Shown here: in pieces, positions 10,303 through 62,900 of the stretch | How positions within the stretch are numbered: the stretch's first letter is position 1 | Layout of the letters: the number at the start of each line of letters is the position of its first letter | DNA from: Candidatus Kapaibacterium sp. | Lineage (GTDB): Bacteria > Bacteroidota > Ignavibacteria > Kapaibacteriales > Kapaibacteriaceae | Direction of reading: 5' to 3' | DNA length: 64,000 nucleotides | NCBI GenBank assembly: GCA_018882895.1 | Contig: VERF01000004.1 | Span: 554-64,553 of the forward strand | Notes under the pieces: generated by a model | The model's database searches: none | What the model was told of the DNA's origin: nothing | The model's input: only the letters and a program-made list of their open reading frames with translations | Made by a program: the position numbers and the translations under genes

Positions 10303-10407
10303 AGTTACCAGTTACGAGTTACTAGTTACTAGGTACTAGTTACTAGATACTAGTTACGAGGGACTAGTTAGTAGGGACTCGTTGCTGGGGACTAGTGCTT
10401 AGTGGGA
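10303..10407. repeat. Tandem heptanucleotide array, arm B (15 degenerate units, consensus AGTTACT on the + strand)
   Basis: Parsed by hand: AGTTACC AGTTACG AGTTACT AGTTACT AGGTACT AGTTACT AGATACT AGTTACG AGGGACT AGTTAGT AGGGACT CGTTGCT GGGGACT AGTGCTT AGTGGGA. It is the reverse complement of the 10444-10660 array and ends 11 nt from the atpF ATG. Confidence 0.95.
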
Positions 10408-10443
10408 GAATGTTGTTGTGAAAGACGCTGAACCGGCCCTAAG

Positions 10444-10660
10444 TACCTGGTACCTAGTACCCAGTAACTAGTACCTAGTAACTAGTACCTCGTACCTCGT
10501 ACCTAGTACCTCGTACCTAGTAACTAGTAACTAGTACCTCGTACCTAGTACCTCGTACCTAGTACCTAGTACCTAGTACCTAGTACCTCGTACCTAGTAA
10601 CTAGTACCTAGTACCTAGTACCTCGTACCTCGTACCTAGTACCTCGTACCTAGTGCCTCG
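10444..10660. repeat. Tandem heptanucleotide array, arm A (31 in-phase units TACCTAG / TACCTCG / TAACTAG on the + strand)
   Basis: 217 nt is exactly 31 x 7. Hand parse gives TACCTGG, TACCTAG, TACCCAG, TAACTAG, ... TGCCTCG. There are no unique spacers between units. Confidence 0.97.
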
Positions 10661-10714
10661 GTCGTCAAGCACGGGTAGGTACCGAGCCTGACGACCGACC
10701 CCGGCGTGCGGGGT
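10659..10714 (-). promoter_or_regulatory. Two adjacent GC-rich hairpins just downstream of the atpE stop
   Basis: CGGTCGTCA (10659-10667) pairs with TGACGACCG (10689-10697), a perfect 9-bp stem. ACCCCG (10698-10703) pairs with CGGGGT (10709-10714), a 6-bp stem with a 5-nt loop. No U-tract follows in the transcribed direction. Confidence 0.6.
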
Positions 10715-10729
10715 CGAGGGGTGTCAGAA

Positions 10730-57155: not shown

Positions 57156-58130
57156 ATGTCACGGCCTCTGCATCCCGATTTTGCCATTGAGGCACTTCAG
57201 CTCCTTGACGCCTCGAGAGCCATCGACGCCGTGCGCCTCTGCAGCATGGGCATTGAGGACTACCCTCAGTATGCCGGTGGCTACGTTATGCTGGCCAAGG
57301 CTTATGCGAAGCTCGGACTGACCGATGATGCCGAGGCTTTGGTGCGCGACATCACGATGCGTTTCCCGCACGTGCATGTGACCCTTTCCCAACGGGAGAC
57401 AGTCGAAGCACCGGTAGTCGAAGCACCGCAAGCCGAAGCACCGGAAGTTGAATCACCGGAAGTTGAATCACCGGAAGCTGAAGCACCGGAAGTCGAAACA
57501 CTGGAAGTTGAAGCACTGGAAGTCGAAACACCGGAAGTCGAGATACCGGAGTTTGAAACACCGGATGTCGTAACACCGGAACTTGTGGCGCAACCAAGTG
57601 AACAGGTCGACGAAGTGTCCGTCGCCCCCTACCACGTCCTTCGCATGATCGAAACGGCGCCGATCGCCGATGATGCGCCGATCATTCGCAGTGGCAGTGT
57701 GCGGCTCATTCCGGGACTGGAGTTCACCACACTGCGTGTCGAGGGGATACGATCGCGCGGGCGCCGTGGTATCGGTTCGCTGCCTGAGCCCCCTTCTTTC
57801 AGAGCATTCCACGCGGTGCGCCGACCTCAGCGTCCGGCTGAACCGACGCCGCAGCGTAAGCCGATCAGTCTCGAGGAACTCGCCTCTCGATTGGTCGATG
57901 TCAAGATGCCGCGTCAAAGCGAGATTGATGCTGCTTCAGCTCGCAACGAGCCTCCACCACCGCCGCAACCCCAGCCGATCCTGGTCACCGAAACGATCGC
58001 CAACATCTACATGCAACAGCAGTCTTACGACCTGGCGATCGAGGCATACAAGACCCTTATGACACGCAAGCCGGAGCGTCGGGATCACTTCGAGGCGCTC
58101 ATCCGCGAATGCGAGCGCAAGCGCGGGTAG
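57156..58130 (+). CDS. Hypothetical protein with TPR-like ends and a central acidic pentapeptide-repeat region
   Basis: TPR-like helices at both ends (YAGGYVMLAKAYAKLGLTDDAEAL; IANIYMQQQSYDLAIEAYKTLM). Central (V/A)E(A/S/T)PE x12. Confidence 0.7.
   Translation: MSRPLHPDFAIEALQLLDASRAIDAVRLCSMGIEDYPQYAGGYVMLAKAYAKLGLTDDAEALVRDITMRFPHVHVTLSQRETVEAPVVEAPQAEAPEVESPEVESPEAEAPEVETLEVEALEVETPEVEIPEFETPDVVTPELVAQPSEQVDEVSVAPYHVLRMIETAPIADDAPIIRSGSVRLIPGLEFTTLRVEGIRSRGRRGIGSLPEPPSFRAFHAVRRPQRPAEPTPQRKPISLEELASRLVDVKMPRQSEIDAASARNEPPPPPQPQPILVTETIANIYMQQQSYDLAIEAYKTLMTRKPERRDHFEALIRECERKRG
57402..57581 (+). repeat. 12 tandem 15-bp coding repeats (GTCGAAGCACCGGAA consensus)
   Basis: Parsed by hand into 12 in-phase 15-mers encoding VEAPV VEAPQ AEAPE VESPE VESPE AEAPE VETLE VEALE VETPE VEIPE FETPD VVTPE. 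Confidence 0.95.
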
Positions 58131-59436: not shown

Positions 59437-60600
59437 TTACCAGACGAATCTGTTGAGGGCTTCGCTGGCGCGAGCAAACGCCTCGTCCACCGTTGCGCCC
59501 GTGGCCGTAAGGTGTCCCATCTTCCGACCCATTCGCACGTCTTTCTTCCCGTATAGGTGCAGGGCAACATCGTCCACCTTCAGCATCTCGATCACACTAT
59601 CGGGAACACCGCTACCGGTGCGCTCACCTAGCAGGTTGATCATGCATGCCGCCGGCACACGCATTTTGGCAGAGCCAAGGGGCATGTTGGTTACCGCACG
59701 AATGACGTTCTCAAACTGCGATGTATGGCAGGCCTCAATGGTGTAGTGTCCGCTATTGTGTGGCCGTGGTGCGATCTCGTTGAAGACGATCTCATCAGCA
59801 AGTGTCAGGAACATCTCAATACCGAACACACCTACGCCACCGATGGCCTCGACGCAGGCAACGGCGATCTCCTGGGCCCTGCGCTGCAGATGATCTTCGA
59901 TCGGTGCCGGTGCAAGTACCGTCACGCAGATATGCCCCTGCTGGATGGTCTGCACGCACGGATATACAGCGATCTCGCCGCGCTTGTTGCGCGCAACCAT
60001 CACTGCCAACTCCTTAGTGAAGGTAACGAATGACTCGGCCAGCAGCGGCCGAGGGTCCTCACCCTCCATGAACCGACGCCACACCATGTCGATCTCGGTC
60101 TCACGCTTGATGGTGGCGTTTCCATAACCATCATACCCGAACTTGCGCGTCTTGGCAACAAACGGATATCCGTGCTTCTGACCAAAGGCAACGAGATCTT
60201 CCTTCGTAGTGATCTCAGCGAACTCCGGCGTCGGAATGCCCGCCCCCTTCATGGTAAGCTTCTGCGTGTACTTGTCCTGCACAAGCCGCATTGTCTGCGG
60301 CGACGGAAACACCAATCGCCGCTCGGCGATGACGTCCAGGATCTCAGGGTCAATGAACTCATTCTCCAACGTTATGATGTCGGAAGCCTGAATGAATCGC
60401 TCCAACTCGGCAGAGTCCTTCCACCCTCCCGGAAACTCCAGCTTGGTCATCACCCCAGCAGGTGAATCCTCGCCATGTTCAATGATCGCCACGCGAAGAC
60501 CCATCCGATAGGCCTCGTGCGCCGTCATCTTCGCAAGCTGCCCACCCCCGAGTATTCCGAGGGTAAGGGGCTTTGTCAGTTGTGTCAGGGAAGGAAGCAT
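59437..60600 (-). CDS. purK: N5-carboxyaminoimidazole ribonucleotide synthase
   Basis: ILGGGQLAKM N-terminus and ATP-grasp motifs (GYPFVAKT..GYDGYGN, EIAPRPHNSGH). Confidence 0.92.
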   Translation of the reverse strand: MLPSLTQLTKPLTLGILGGGQLAKMTAHEAYRMGLRVAIIEHGEDSPAGVMTKLEFPGGWKDSAELERFIQASDIITLENEFIDPEILDVIAERRLVFPSPQTMRLVQDKYTQKLTMKGAGIPTPEFAEITTKEDLVAFGQKHGYPFVAKTRKFGYDGYGNATIKRETEIDMVWRRFMEGEDPRPLLAESFVTFTKELAVMVARNKRGEIAVYPCVQTIQQGHICVTVLAPAPIEDHLQRRAQEIAVACVEAIGGVGVFGIEMFLTLADEIVFNEIAPRPHNSGHYTIEACHTSQFENVIRAVTNMPLGSAKMRVPAACMINLLGERTGSGVPDSVIEMLKVDDVALHLYGKKDVRMGRKMGHLTATGATVDEAFARASEALNRFVW

Positions 60601-60603
60601 TTC

Positions 60604-60631
60604 AGGTTACAGGTTACAGGTTACAGGTTAC
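60604..60631. repeat. Tandem heptanucleotide array (AGGTTAC x4 on +), ending 3 nt from the purK ATG
   Basis: Hand parse of ttc|AGGTTAC|AGGTTAC|AGGTTAC|AGGTTAC|agggg. On the transcribed (minus) strand this reads CCTGTAA x4, giving a TAA in every unit. Confidence 0.95.
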
Positions 60632-60680
60632 AGGGGAAGCAGCAATTTGGTATCAGCTTTACCTCGGTGAAAGATCGAGC

Positions 60681-60715
60681 CTGTCACCTGTCACCCATCA
60701 CCTGTCACCTGTTCA
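60681..60715. repeat. Tandem heptanucleotide array (CTGTCAC x5, two variant units, on +), an imperfect inverted partner of 60604-60631
   Basis: CTGTCAC CTGTCAC CCATCAC CTGTCAC CTGTTCA. On the minus strand this reads CAGGTGA units (TGA in every unit). The array encodes the last 6 aa and the stop of acpS (..EQVTGDG*). Confidence 0.9.
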
Positions 60716-61077
60716 ATCACTACCACTGCCAAAGCAACGGTAGATGTGTGGCTAAGTGAGACATGGATGGTGTGTGATCCCCATCGTTCGAGCATGGCAC
60801 CGAAGAGTTCGATACGGGGCTCACCGGATTTCTCGTTCACGATGCCGACGAGCTTAAAGGACATACCATCGCGCATGCCGGTCTTGACGGCCTTGGAGAA
60901 GGCCTCCTTTGCGGCAAAGCGAGCGGCGTAATGAAGAAAACGTGTTTCACCGAAATGGTCACAGTAGGCGATCTCGGTGTCGGTGAAGATCTTCGACAAA
61001 AACCGATCGCCGTACTGGTCGTAGGCAGCTTTGATGCGCGGGACGTCCACCACGTCGGTACCGATGCCGATGATCAT
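60691..61077 (-). CDS. acpS: Holo-[acyl-carrier-protein] synthase
   Basis: [26 protein letters not shown] and SLSHT motifs. ATG at 61077 verified; it overlaps the cobB stop. Confidence 0.9.
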   Translation of the reverse strand: MIIGIGTDVVDVPRIKAAYDQYGDRFLSKIFTDTEIAYCDHFGETRFLHYAARFAAKEAFSKAVKTGMRDGMSFKLVGIVNEKSGEPRIELFGAMLERWGSHTIHVSLSHTSTVALAVVVIEQVTGDG

Positions 61078-61790
61078 GAAGCGACTCCGATAAGCTGTGG
61101 CAGTACTGAGGCACTGGTGCCGACAAGCACGTGATGGGCTTCGCGGCTGAAGACGGTAGGATTCGGGTTGACCTCTACGATCGTTGCGCCGTACTGCTTG
61201 GCCGTGTAGGCAAGACCGGCGGCCGGCCATACTTCCGCACTCGTACCGATCACAAACATGATGTCGCAGCCGCGCGCCGCCTGCTCAGCCGCTGCAAAGA
61301 CGTCCTGCGGCAGCTCTTCTCCAAACCAGACCACGTTGGGACGCATCGGGCCGAGGCATTCGACGCAGTCCAAGCGGTCGTCAGTTCGGATGTGCCCGCA
61401 GTCATTACAGCGGTTTTCGATCAGGTTGCCGTGGACTTCAAGAACGTTTCGGCTGCCCGCACGCTGGTGCAGTCGGTCCACGTTCTGCGTGATCAGCGTG
61501 AATGTGCCTTCATGTGTCCTCTCCAGCTCTGCCAATGCATAGTGTCCGGCATTCGGCTCCACACTCGTGGCGATGCTGCGGCGGTGAGCATACCACTCGC
61601 GTACGCGCTCCGGGTTGGCCAGAAAGCCCTCCATGCTGGCAAGCTCTTGGGGGGAGAATTTTGCCCAGAGTCCGTCGGGATCGCGAAACGTGGGCACGCC
61701 CGACTCGGCACTCACACCAGCACCGGTCAGCACGGCGATCGACCGTGCCTGCCTAAGTATGCCGCGTACCGTGTCGACGTCGTTGCTCAT
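61074..61790 (-). CDS. cobB: NAD-dependent protein deacylase (Sir2/CobB)
   Basis: [26 protein letters not shown], Zn ribbon CNDCGH...CVEC, and VWFGE. Confidence 0.9.
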
Positions 61791-62900
61791 GCTGCGGAGT
61801 TGAGTTGGTCTTCCAGAAGCAGATATGCCTTGATGAGCTCGTCAATGTCACCATCCATCACCGAATGCACGTCCGTGATCTTTGTCTCCGTGCGGTGGTC
61901 GTTGACCATTGTGTAAGGTTGGAAGACGTACGAGCGGATCTGCGAGCCCCATTCAATTTTCTTCTTGGAACCTTCGATGGCGGCCTTGGCGGCTTCCTCT
62001 TCTTCGCGGCGGATCTGGTACAGGCGAGACTTGAGCATCTTCATCGCATGCTCGCGGTTGAGCAGCTGCGAACGCTCCTGCTGACAAGCCACTACCACAC
62101 CCGAAGGGATGTGACGCAGACGCACGGCGGTCTCGACCTTATTGACATTCTGGCCACCCTTGCCCCCTGATCGAAACGTGTCCATTTCCACGTCCGCAGG
62201 ATTGATGACGATCTCAACATCATCCTCCACCTCCGGGTACACGAACACCGAAGCGAACGACGTGTGACGTCGGGCATTGGAGTCATACGGGCTGATGCGA
62301 ACCAGACGGTGCACGCCGTTTTCTGCCTTGAGATATCCGTACGCATACCGGCCGCGTATCTCCAGCGTGCAGCTCTTGATACCCGCGGTATCGCCTTCCT
62401 GCTCTTCGGCAAGGTACACCTCGAAGCCGTGCTTTTCGGCCCAGCGAGTGTACATGCGCATGAGCATCTCGGCCCAGTCCTGCGCTTCCGTACCGCCGGC
62501 ACCGGCATTGATCGTTAGGATGGCATTGCGGTTGTCGTCCTGACCCGAGAGGATCTTGCGAAGCTCCAGCTCATCGACGGATGTCAGGCACTTGGCAAGT
62601 TCCGCAAGGATGTCCGACTCCATCGAGGAGTCGTCGGCCTCTTCGGCCAGTTCGATCAGGGCCTGCACGTCGCCGACGCTTCCCTGCGCCTGTTCCCAGG
62701 TCTGCACCCAGTCCTTCAGATTCGCAGCTTCCTGCATCAGCTTCTGGGCCTTCTGGGCATCATCCCAGAAATCCGGTGCTTGGGAGAGCATCTCCCGTTC
62801 TGCTATCTCGTCGCGCTTGCGATCGATGTCAAAGGAACCTCCGCAATTGGTCCACACGGTCGCGGAGTTCACTCACTTGTTGCTTTTGTGGCTCAAACAT
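61787..62900 (-). CDS. prfB: Peptide chain release factor 2, requiring a programmed +1 frameshift
   Basis: ORF0 is ATG at 62900 ... CTT TGA (stop at 62829-62831). The main frame continues as DIDRKRDEI.. and contains SPYDS (SPF-equivalent region) and the [17 protein letters not shown] motif. Confidence 0.93.
62828..62843 (-). promoter_or_regulatory. RF2 autoregulatory +1 frameshift site (SD-like GGAGG, 3 nt, CTT TGA C)
   Basis: Minus strand reads CGG AGG TTC CTT TGA CAT. Shifting +1 at CTT-T gives GAC ATC GAT = DID, matching the downstream ORF. Confidence 0.9.

Follow-up and report, generated by a model that had tools for sequence, protein, structure and literature searches.

A recent, fast-changing pair of inverted heptamer arrays at the acpS–purK junction of a Candidatus Kapaibacterium genome

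In a stretch of 64,000 nucleotides (nt) of Candidatus Kapaibacterium sp. DNA (contig VERF01000004.1 of assembly GCA_018882895.1, positions 554 to 64,553; hereafter the window), the minus-strand genes acpS and purK are joined by two tandem arrays of heptamers that face each other as an inverted pair. The locus raises the question of whether such a pair is a conserved element that regulates its operon or a repeat that has grown at the junction recently. An initial annotation had favoured a function at the level of RNA or translation, in common with a second pair between atpE and atpF. The comparative analysis described here places the acpS–purK element in a known but unexplained kind, the intergenic heptamer simple sequence repeat (SSR) arrays, which include inverted pairs, and identifies its hairpin as a recent, fast-changing example of that widespread class and not as a conserved regulatory element. 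The pair is recent in origin, its units and copy numbers turn over rapidly, complementary arms arise de novo and share unit vocabularies, and the pairs follow a polarity. The explanation favoured, at a probability of roughly 55%, is that the element is a hypermutable inverted heptanucleotide SSR pair that recently expanded in an ancestral, translationally coupled junction of 1–13 nt and is tolerated there.

The acpS–purK junction in the window and in relatives

Direct reading of the plus strand gave AGGTTAC four times at 60604–60631 and, at 60681–60715, the units CTGTCAC (twice), CCATCAC, CTGTCAC and CTGTTCA, of which CCATCAC and CTGTTCA are variants. The same two arrays, as initially described, were returned by Tandem Repeats Finder (TRF), which reported CAGGTTA (period 7, 4.6 copies, 100% match) at 60603–60634 and CCTGTCA (period 7, 4.7 copies, 84% match) at 60680–60712, both on the plus strand. 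An inverted-repeat search paired 32-nt arms at 60603–60634 and 60680–60711 with 81% complementarity and 45 nt between them; the 49-nt spacer given initially holds by its own unit boundaries. On the transcribed minus strand the upstream arm (60680–60715) is G-rich, comprises five CAGGUGA units, two of them variants, and extends over the 3′ end of acpS. It is followed by a 45-nt loop (60635–60679) that contains a small internal stem, CUCG..CGAG, and by the G-poor, purK-proximal downstream arm (60603–60634), which is (CCUGUAA)x4.6 and 100% periodic. A single mismatch per heptad separates the arms, T·C on the plus strand and G·A on the transcribed strand, and here the search and the direct reading bore out the initial description of the hairpin.

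The two arrays are thus convergent, complementary and adjacent, and they have the properties of long heptanucleotide SSRs: a unit size within 5–11 nt, a length above chance, and a copy number that is unstable among relatives. Matches to a GTAACNN x3 pattern (GTAACNNGTAACNNGTAAC) numbered four in the window, against 0.00 expected from 100 shuffles, and no second copy of the acpS–purK element was found within the 64 kb. The predicted hairpin in the minus-strand RNA has a folding energy of −47.8 kcal/mol (z = −2.75 against dinucleotide shuffles), and the plus-strand RNA folds about equally well (−45.7 kcal/mol, z = −2.9). A scan against Rfam 15 gave no family at gathering score, the sole match being the generic hairpin mir-587 at 25 bits against a required 80, and a scan for promoters and terminators was likewise negative at the element.

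Both flanking genes reach into, or almost into, the arrays. The purK gene (59437–60600, minus strand, 387 amino acids (aa); Pfam ATP-grasp and PurK_C domains) starts at an ATG at 60598–60600, and the N terminus MLPS.. is kept in all relatives. Direct reading confirmed that the downstream arm ends 3 nt from this ATG, so that the stem is followed by GAAAUG. The acpS gene for holo-ACP synthase (60691–61077, minus strand, 128 aa; Pfam PF01648, E = 3.4e-17, and alignment) begins at the ATG at 61077 (MIIGIGTD...), the mechanically called open reading frame (ORF) of 60691–61230 being too long. Its stop codon, TGA at 60691–60693, falls within unit three of the upstream arm. The AcpS tail, ..IEQVTGDG*, therefore takes its last six codons, QVTGDG, from the repeat. 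Alignment and ORF reading support this part of the initial annotation in full, and these six codons are the sole coding overlap of otherwise intergenic arrays.

The junction was surveyed in 40 species-level purK loci from a genome collection and, in addition, in metagenome contigs. Of the 40 loci, 35 have acpS immediately before purK; another gene takes that place in L108, L111, L113, L126 and L128. In 21 of the 40 (35 with acpS upstream) the genes overlap or are separated by at most 13 nt, and no array is present (for example taaCTTCGACTatg, the 1-nt spacers of L115 and L118, and the overlap of L121). A further six loci have spacers of 22–134 nt, again without an array. Junction arrays are confined to the subclade in which PurK is at least 92% identical, and even there the units differ and a single arm is often found. 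The conserved placement that would have spoken for the initial interpretation is hence largely missing, both here and at the atp locus, where relatives lack the upstream arm.

Within the subclade the variety is considerable. The window has CAGGTGA / CCTGTAA, and L091 has a downstream arm identical to it. L090 carries AGGTTAC (one AGGTGAC) x5, a 3-nt loop and then ACCTGTA / ACCTGTC / ACCTGCA x9, with both unit variants (AGGTTAC, AGGTGAC and their complements) present in both arms. L007–L009 have CGATGAC x5–11, and L092 has CCAATGA x8 followed by units of ~20 nt. The upstream arm AGTGACS is common to L095 (x18) and L096 (x9); the complementary arm, ACTSGTC x10, occurs in L096 only. L094 carries an octamer pair, ACAGAGGT x11 / GTACCTCA x8.5, with one mismatch per unit. 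A single GTACCCA array is found in L097, L160 and L002–L005, and its copy number differs (x4.4, x6.4, x7.4) between the otherwise near-identical contigs L002–L005. Octamer and 19–21-nt periods thus occupy the same site as the heptamers. The proposal that AGGT and GTAAC motifs define one element family does not survive this list of units, nor the finding, given below, that a control heptamer is as common. A metagenome scan anchored on the exact window junction (AACCTGTAACCTGAAATGCT) gave 0 matches, and hence no strain-level variants of the locus.

In L090 a TAG stands at the position of the window's CAG, AcpS ends in ..VVIE* and the array follows directly after the stop; in the window the tail arises because the reading frame runs on into the array. 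AcpS of relatives usually ends in ..VVVIEE at 123 aa, and the tails vary freely.

Contigs end exactly at the acpS–purK arrays in L001 (within the array, CAGGTTTCAGGT), L007, L009, L090, L091, L093, L096 and L117, and L006 is N-masked at its array (2345–2659). The arrays are therefore systematic breakpoints in the assembly of metagenome-assembled genomes (MAGs), and copy numbers in short-read assemblies are unreliable.

Arrays at other loci and tests of strand

The parallel drawn initially with the atpE–atpF locus is real, as the architecture is the same. On the minus strand an upstream arm after atpE (10442–10658), (AGGUACK)x31 in the sense direction, faces an atpF-proximal arm (10303–10396) of AGUAACU-type units in ~13 copies, partly with a 14-nt period. 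The spacer between the two genes, with its (AGGTACK)x31 and AGTAACT-type units, is 438 nt long and unique to the window. In all relatives examined, including one with AtpF 96% identical, it measures 115–134 nt and holds two conserved hairpins and then a short C/A-rich heptamer array before the atpF ATG (AACCCAR, ACCTCAC or AACCTGW); none of these relatives has a complementary upstream arm. The inverted pair at the atp locus must therefore be recent as well. Copies of AACCCAR differ here too, at ~x3 in L169 vs x4.6 in L170. The hairpins right after the atpE stop (10660–10728, minus strand; GACCCCG..CGGGGTC and GGTCGTCAGG..CTTGACGACC) are conserved in all relatives, whereas the adjoining heptamer arrays are not.

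In 1.35 Mb of Kapabacteria DNA, period 7 leads the high-scoring tandem repeats with 35 arrays (score at least 50), followed by periods 14 and 21. In the clade defined by PurK identity of at least 73%, arrays of period 7 or 8 with at least four copies have a density of 5.0 per 100 kb; in that with 54–65% identity the density is ~12-fold lower, at 0.4 per 100 kb. Arrays lie 0–12 nt from stop or start codons and in all intergenic contexts: between convergent genes (purK/lptF in L101, L104, L107, L110, L112 and L121; dnaA/EVE in L108 and L113), between divergent genes (L115) and between co-directional ones, so that the expected restriction to co-directional genes was not found. About half of the Kapabacteria arrays form inverted pairs. 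The two arms tend to share units, with an exact complement in the partner arm for 19/31 units in the window atp pair, 8/9 in L096, 5/6 in L108 and 5/14 in L112. The window purK pair is the extreme case, at 0/5, each arm being fixed for a different variant. At one orthologous site L108 has TAGCGAA/TTCGCTA and L113 has CAGMGAA/TTCRCTG between conserved flanks, GTTAAC..TTAAC; such complementary variants between conserved flanks point to expansion inside an older short stem with the two arms coupled.

The class extends well beyond this lineage. The heptamer AACCTGT was found at 2.9 or more copies in >120 metagenome contigs with a guanine-plus-cytosine (GC) content of 33–72%, and TRF on these contigs together with 80 viral contigs gave 595 period-7 arrays in 199 loci, among them 138 adjacent inverted pairs with at most two mismatches per unit; gene calls in this wide sample are heuristic. 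The expectation that the element belongs to a class with many members was thereby upheld. A scan of viral contigs for GTAACNN x4 gave at least 80 matches. The idea that AACCTGT and AGGTGAC form a special sequence family was rejected, because a composition-matched control is found in viral arrays as often: x4 arrays numbered 3 for AACCTGT and 1 for AGGTGAC, and 0 and 7 for the controls ACATCGT and TCAAGCT. Three viral contigs of GC ~57% (L065, L073, L075) carry dozens of TCAGTAA / ACTGATT / CAGTGAT inverted pairs at ~300-nt intervals, with units one mismatch from TAACTGA.

A polarity was evident in the inverted pairs. In 49 of them a G-rich 5′ arm is followed by a C-rich 3′ arm and in six the order is reversed; without units related to the search patterns the ratio is 22 vs 4. 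The arrangement reads identically on either strand. The window pair obeys it, with three G and one C in the upstream CAGGTGA and one G and two C in the downstream CCTGTAA. Relative to genes, among arrays that precede an ORF start by at most 25 nt, 58 have a C-rich and 31 a G-rich sense strand; among those that follow a stop by at most 25 nt, a set with some ascertainment bias, 72 are G-rich and 22 C-rich. It is possible that the polarity arises because a C-rich arm, when it is the second to be transcribed, pairs immediately and is at no time accessible to Rho. The suggestion that start-proximal arrays simply mirror G-poor leaders was discarded, as ordinary leaders of the relatives contain 27.6% G and 17/58 have a 4-mer resembling a Shine–Dalgarno (SD) sequence.

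Stop codons proved less informative. At the window acpS–purK pair the initial observation stands: every CAGGTGA unit has a TGA and every CCTGTAA unit a TAA on the sense strand, and the plus-strand units have no stop. For a random heptamer array the chance of a stop on one particular strand is P = 0.245, and the window pattern, stops in both sense arms and none antisense, has P = 0.008 in a random pair with one mismatch, a pattern that was noticed post hoc. As a signature it did not hold up. Fourteen independent Kapabacteria units gave six with sense-only and two with antisense-only stops, which is not significant, and among 94 distinct start-proximal units of the wider sample 43 had sense and 42 antisense stops against 35 expected. 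The atp locus, which had been credited with the same asymmetry, has stops (TAG) on the non-transcribed strand too. A sense-only asymmetry is accordingly not a property of the class. Transition mismatches on the sense strand were G·U in 13 cases and A·C in 12, which gives no RNA-level signal at the low power and with the crude gene calls of this count. A rule that per-heptad mismatches are always transversions was also dropped, since it is true for ~5 Kapabacteria pairs and about half of the mismatches in the wider sample are transitions.

Known systems and explanations of the element

Several described repeats resemble the element in part. The GGGAATC and GGGGA(C/T)T arrays of Xanthomonas and Nostoc are intergenic heptamers of variable copy number and unknown function, whose length and sequence differ among sister species; 70–75 convergent, stem-loop-capable pairs occur per Xanthomonas genome, and the G-rich strand coincides with the coding strand downstream of ORFs and with the non-coding strand upstream of them (Rehm et al. 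2015, PMC4692102). The window pair and the wider sample show the same G-rich/C-rich polarity. Where Xanthomonas and Nostoc have one unit genome-wide that can form a G-quadruplex (G4), the window's lineage, in the Bacteroidota, has locus-specific units; in the window, units with at most GG and no G3 tracts make a G4 impossible, the arms are fixed for different variants and one arm enters coding sequence. In the Haemophilus influenzae hmw1A gene, transcribed (ATCTTTC)n pairs with a G-rich partner in a long hairpin of the 5′ untranslated region (UTR), and its cleavage by RNase III alters expression and is needed for repeat-number change (PMC12721329). This is the only such case with an experimentally worked-out mechanism, and it shares with the window a transcribed heptamer array in a long hairpin just upstream of a gene. 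It differs in having one repeat arm, with the pyrimidine-rich arm 5′ and hence the opposite polarity, and in belonging to a phase-variable adhesin with a promoter-proximal 5′-UTR, unlike the intercistronic housekeeping junction of the window. Of the properties of an RNase III-type hairpin the window offers the structural prerequisite, in the form of a long predicted stem.

TAACTGA direct repeats, described from marine Beggiatoaceae, Cyanobacteria and Bacteroidetes, lie in sense orientation a few nt before start codons in place of an SD sequence; the unit contains stop codons, occurs in unrelated phyla and forms 169 direct sets vs one indirect, with 2–6 copies in Beggiatoa, and relatives have no arrays at the corresponding junctions (MacGregor 2015, PMC4679880). 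The window's downstream arm is likewise forward-oriented, 3 nt before the purK ATG, with a different unit, CCTGTAA (TAACCTG), while TAACTGA repeats consist of one dominant unit per genome. More generally, long SSRs of prokaryotes, as far as they are summarised from Mrazek 2007 in PMC4679880 and PMC4692102, have units of 5–11 nt with heptamers most abundant or over-represented, are non-coding and sporadic across lineages, and have been ascribed to polymerase slippage. In these summaries the class is purely descriptive, and inverted pairing and polarity lie outside its scope.

Two older systems offer looser parallels, and the window's units match none of the units CCCCAGT, TTGGTCA and CAACAGT of the first. 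The STRR (short tandemly repeated repetitive) sequences of heterocystous cyanobacteria, attributed to Mazel et al. 1990, are said to be tandem heptamers with three named units, intergenic and transcribed. In RNase P RNA, strain-specific STRR units reportedly lengthen both arms of helix P12 (attributed to Vioque 1997), which may be likened to the extension of an existing stem by arrays suggested here. The L092 unit CCAATGA, a rotation of the STRR2 (TTGGTCA) complement, makes L092 the only relative with such a unit. At the coat–replicase junction of phage MS2, translation is coupled by the melting of a hairpin. The window resembles this in that the upstream ORF ends in one arm and the other arm covers the downstream initiation region; MS2-type stems are short and conserved, whereas that of the window is a recent repeat expansion whose part in coupling is modelled.

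One explanation of these data, the recent and tolerated expansion favoured above, would proceed as follows. Slippage in replication would let the arrays grow, shrink, and swap and homogenise their units, as the comparative pattern suggests. The second arm would come from intrastrand template switching, that is fold-back copying, or from expansion in both arms of a small hairpin already present; template switching at quasipalindromes is an established concept. Each arm may then homogenise its own variant, the upstream arm becoming fixed for AGGTGAC and the downstream arm for the complement of AGGTTAC, and arms fixed for different variants have exactly one mismatch per heptad. Gene expression would filter the survivors, leaving the start-adjacent arm C-rich and G-poor on the sense strand and the post-stop arm G-rich, and a stop-bearing unit would end the upstream ORF within three units at any copy number. 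In the mRNA the ~110 inserted nt would fold into a stem of ~−48 kcal/mol that joins the acpS stop to the purK AUG, and a ribosome terminating in the upstream arm would melt the stem and free the purK leader. In the modelled free RNA the downstream arm is unpaired with P = 0.21 and the purK AUG is open (0.78); with 31 nt around the acpS stop held single-stranded, the former value rises to 0.70. This rise would mean that the insertion can be looped out and coupling retained, and if the stem is melted in this way the insertion could be tolerated, with no dedicated regulatory function required.

A number of points weigh against this explanation. All 9/9 species-level representatives of the closest subclade retain some junction array, which could reflect maintenance and not just inheritance and turnover. 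The AGGTGAC / CCTGTAA pair with its G·A mismatch recurs in L191 (928–1172, GC 56%) and L086 (370–515, GC 66%), with spacers and neighbours unrelated to those of the window, and drift alone does not predict this. Arm co-variation and strong polarity could equally be explained by selection for a hairpin with a function. The sequences of the relatives come from short-read MAGs, often broken at the arrays and possibly collapsing them; slippage and template switching are deduced from the comparative pattern, and the coupling step is argued from thermodynamic folding. In L191 and L086 the variation of the partner arm is concentrated on 3 nt outside a constant CAGG/CCTG core.

It could be that the pair is instead a selected, dedicated RNA-level device, a site for RNase III processing or for stability or else one that attenuates or couples translation, with its strength set by repeat number, which would uncouple or balance the expression of acpS against purK and of atpE against atpF. 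The hmw1A hairpin provides a precedent; the sense-strand RNA of the window pair forms a stable hairpin, L108 and L113 show the two arms changing together, pairs are polar relative to genes and both window pairs lie within operons. F-ATPase stoichiometry requires an excess of c subunit, a need that the position after atpE would suit. We nevertheless consider such a device unlikely, since most orthologous junctions lack the element, as does the atp junction in the closest relatives, a single arm is frequent in relatives, G·U is not in excess over A·C, the plus-strand RNA folds equally well, no Rfam family matches, and the hmw1A hairpin has the opposite polarity. In a broader version, regarded as rather less probable still, inverted heptad arrays would be a general, selected hairpin resembling a zipper, found from Bacteroidota to Proteobacteria and in contigs of viral collections, with a fixed polarity, the G-rich arm being transcribed first on either strand, and with arms kept complementary through arm-to-arm templating. 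Its stability, stepped by repeat number and by periodic non-wobble mismatches, may tune intercistronic processing, Rho access or the coupling of translation in operons of housekeeping genes.

The remaining alternatives fit fewer of the observations. Binding sites spaced by heptads near starts, recognised by a protein of the S1, Csp or CsrA type or by a DNA-binding factor, would accord with the identity of units across unrelated taxa and with the AACCTGT arrays, which have an ORF start at most 30 nt downstream in 34/105 cases in the sense orientation vs 15/105 in the opposite one; a similar hypothesis was proposed for TAACTGA repeats (PMC4679880). This seems improbable, because units vary by locus and between sister species at one locus, so that a single protein specificity does not fit; octamer and 19–21-nt periods occupy the same site, and no candidate protein was identified. 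A miniature mobile element with heptamer arrays as terminal inverted repeats, similar to MITEs (miniature inverted-repeat transposable elements) or repetitive extragenic palindromic (REP) sequences and inserted at the junction, is even less easily reconciled with the data. REP-like hairpins, GTCATTCC-N9-GGAATCC, do lie exactly between the arms in L094 (~9850), L096 (~253) and L101 (~7528), an insertion sequence (IS) element lies within one pair, and the AGGTGAC/CCTGTAA pair is shared with L191 and L086. However, the window spacer shows no similarity to those of L086, L191 and L096, no duplicated target site was apparent, different units make up the two window loci, the arms are of unequal and variable length and often occur singly, and the 64 kb do not hold several dispersed near-identical copies with a conserved core. 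The IS3-family element (L101 7487–8924, ORFs of 150 and 367 aa) lies between AGGTACN / AGTACCT arms at the purK–lptF junction, adjoins the REP-like hairpin and was inserted after the pair had formed; in distant Kapabacteria (L136, L137, L148 and L156) similar REP-like hairpins are present with no array beside them.

Little weight is given to a contingency locus at which repeat number switches or grades PurK or AcpS as bet-hedging, even though phase variation by SSRs is an established paradigm, copy number is polymorphic within species and the array shapes the AcpS tail. Both genes have housekeeping roles, unlike the surface or virulence genes typical of repeat-number on/off switches, and unit changes never frameshift purK; all-frame stops hold the AcpS tail to a few residues, and this tail differs freely from one relative to the next. 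For their own arrays Rehm et al. came to an equally negative verdict (PMC4692102). An intrinsic terminator or attenuator between acpS and purK, to which a stable intergenic stem and the occurrence of some related pairs between convergent genes might point, is scarcely credible: no U-tract follows the stem, the scan found no terminator-like site there, and the stem abuts the purK AUG inside an operon. Canonical terminators, such as that of E. coli trpA, are generally described with a C-rich 5′ arm and a G-rich 3′ arm, which is the reverse of the order in these pairs.

Neighbouring genes and significance

Upstream of acpS lie a Sir2-family gene (61074–61790) and prfB (61787–62872), both on the minus strand and assigned by Pfam, and the overlapping or tight junctions of these four minus-strand genes indicate an operon of purK, acpS, the Sir2-family gene and prfB. 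The closest homologues of AcpS, PurK and AtpF come from uncultured MAGs, most consistently labelled Candidatus Kapaibacterium (Bacteroidota, Kapaibacteriaceae). Six Kapabacteria-like contigs with PurK 76–95% identical to that of the window (L090, L107, L115, L118, L128 and L160) bear implausible deposited names (Patescibacteria, Hyphomicrobiales, Bradyrhizobiaceae, Chitinophaga pinensis). The prfB gene has a classical programmed +1 frameshift (62828–62900, minus strand), with a short ORF from the ATG at 62900 and the shift site GGAGG-TTC-CTT-TGA-C at 62842–62828, from which the main frame continues; the SD-like GGAGG inside it suggests that the anti-SD sequence is usable in this organism. A plus-strand gene for a tetratricopeptide repeat (TPR) protein has a 15-nt coding repeat x12 (57401–57581; ..EAPEVESPEV..). 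At the orthologous segment distant relatives (L121 13073–13187, L123 19785–19898 and L125 12557–12701) have AGTGACG-type heptamers in an in-frame 33-nt super-period, VTSEVTSDELQ x3. This heptamer is the unit of the L095/L096 acpS–purK arm, and heptamer arrays thus also enter coding sequence. Downstream of a DUF5686 gene, a 14-nt tandem repeat of self-complementary units, TGCG(T/C)AACGCAAAA, is present at x2.6–3.5 in L002 (6944–6992), L004 (3915–3963), L007 (7478–7514), L008 (31–79) and L009 (318–366); the gene that follows is an AAA-ATPase in L002–L004 and L008 and prfB in L007 and L009.

In some bacterial lineages heptamer arrays are frequent between genes, and they are unexplained. The present locus provides a clean natural time series that starts from a coupled junction of 1–13 nt, in which sister species within a few percent of protein divergence carry single arrays, inverted pairs, octamer pairs or units of ~20 nt. 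New here are locus-specific units that form no G4, arms fixed for different variants, and the invasion of a coupled operon junction and a coding end in a Bacteroidota lineage without cultured members; the evidence added is that arms share unit vocabularies and co-vary and that an array supplies the end of a protein. The polarity rule of Xanthomonas and Nostoc is extended to unrelated, non-G4 units in many other contigs. On the practical side, the arrays break MAG assemblies at predictable sites. If the hairpins are functional, they would be a copy-number-tunable means of setting expression ratios inside operons; if they are not, they would serve as a useful model for the way hypermutable DNA enters operon junctions and leaves them intact.

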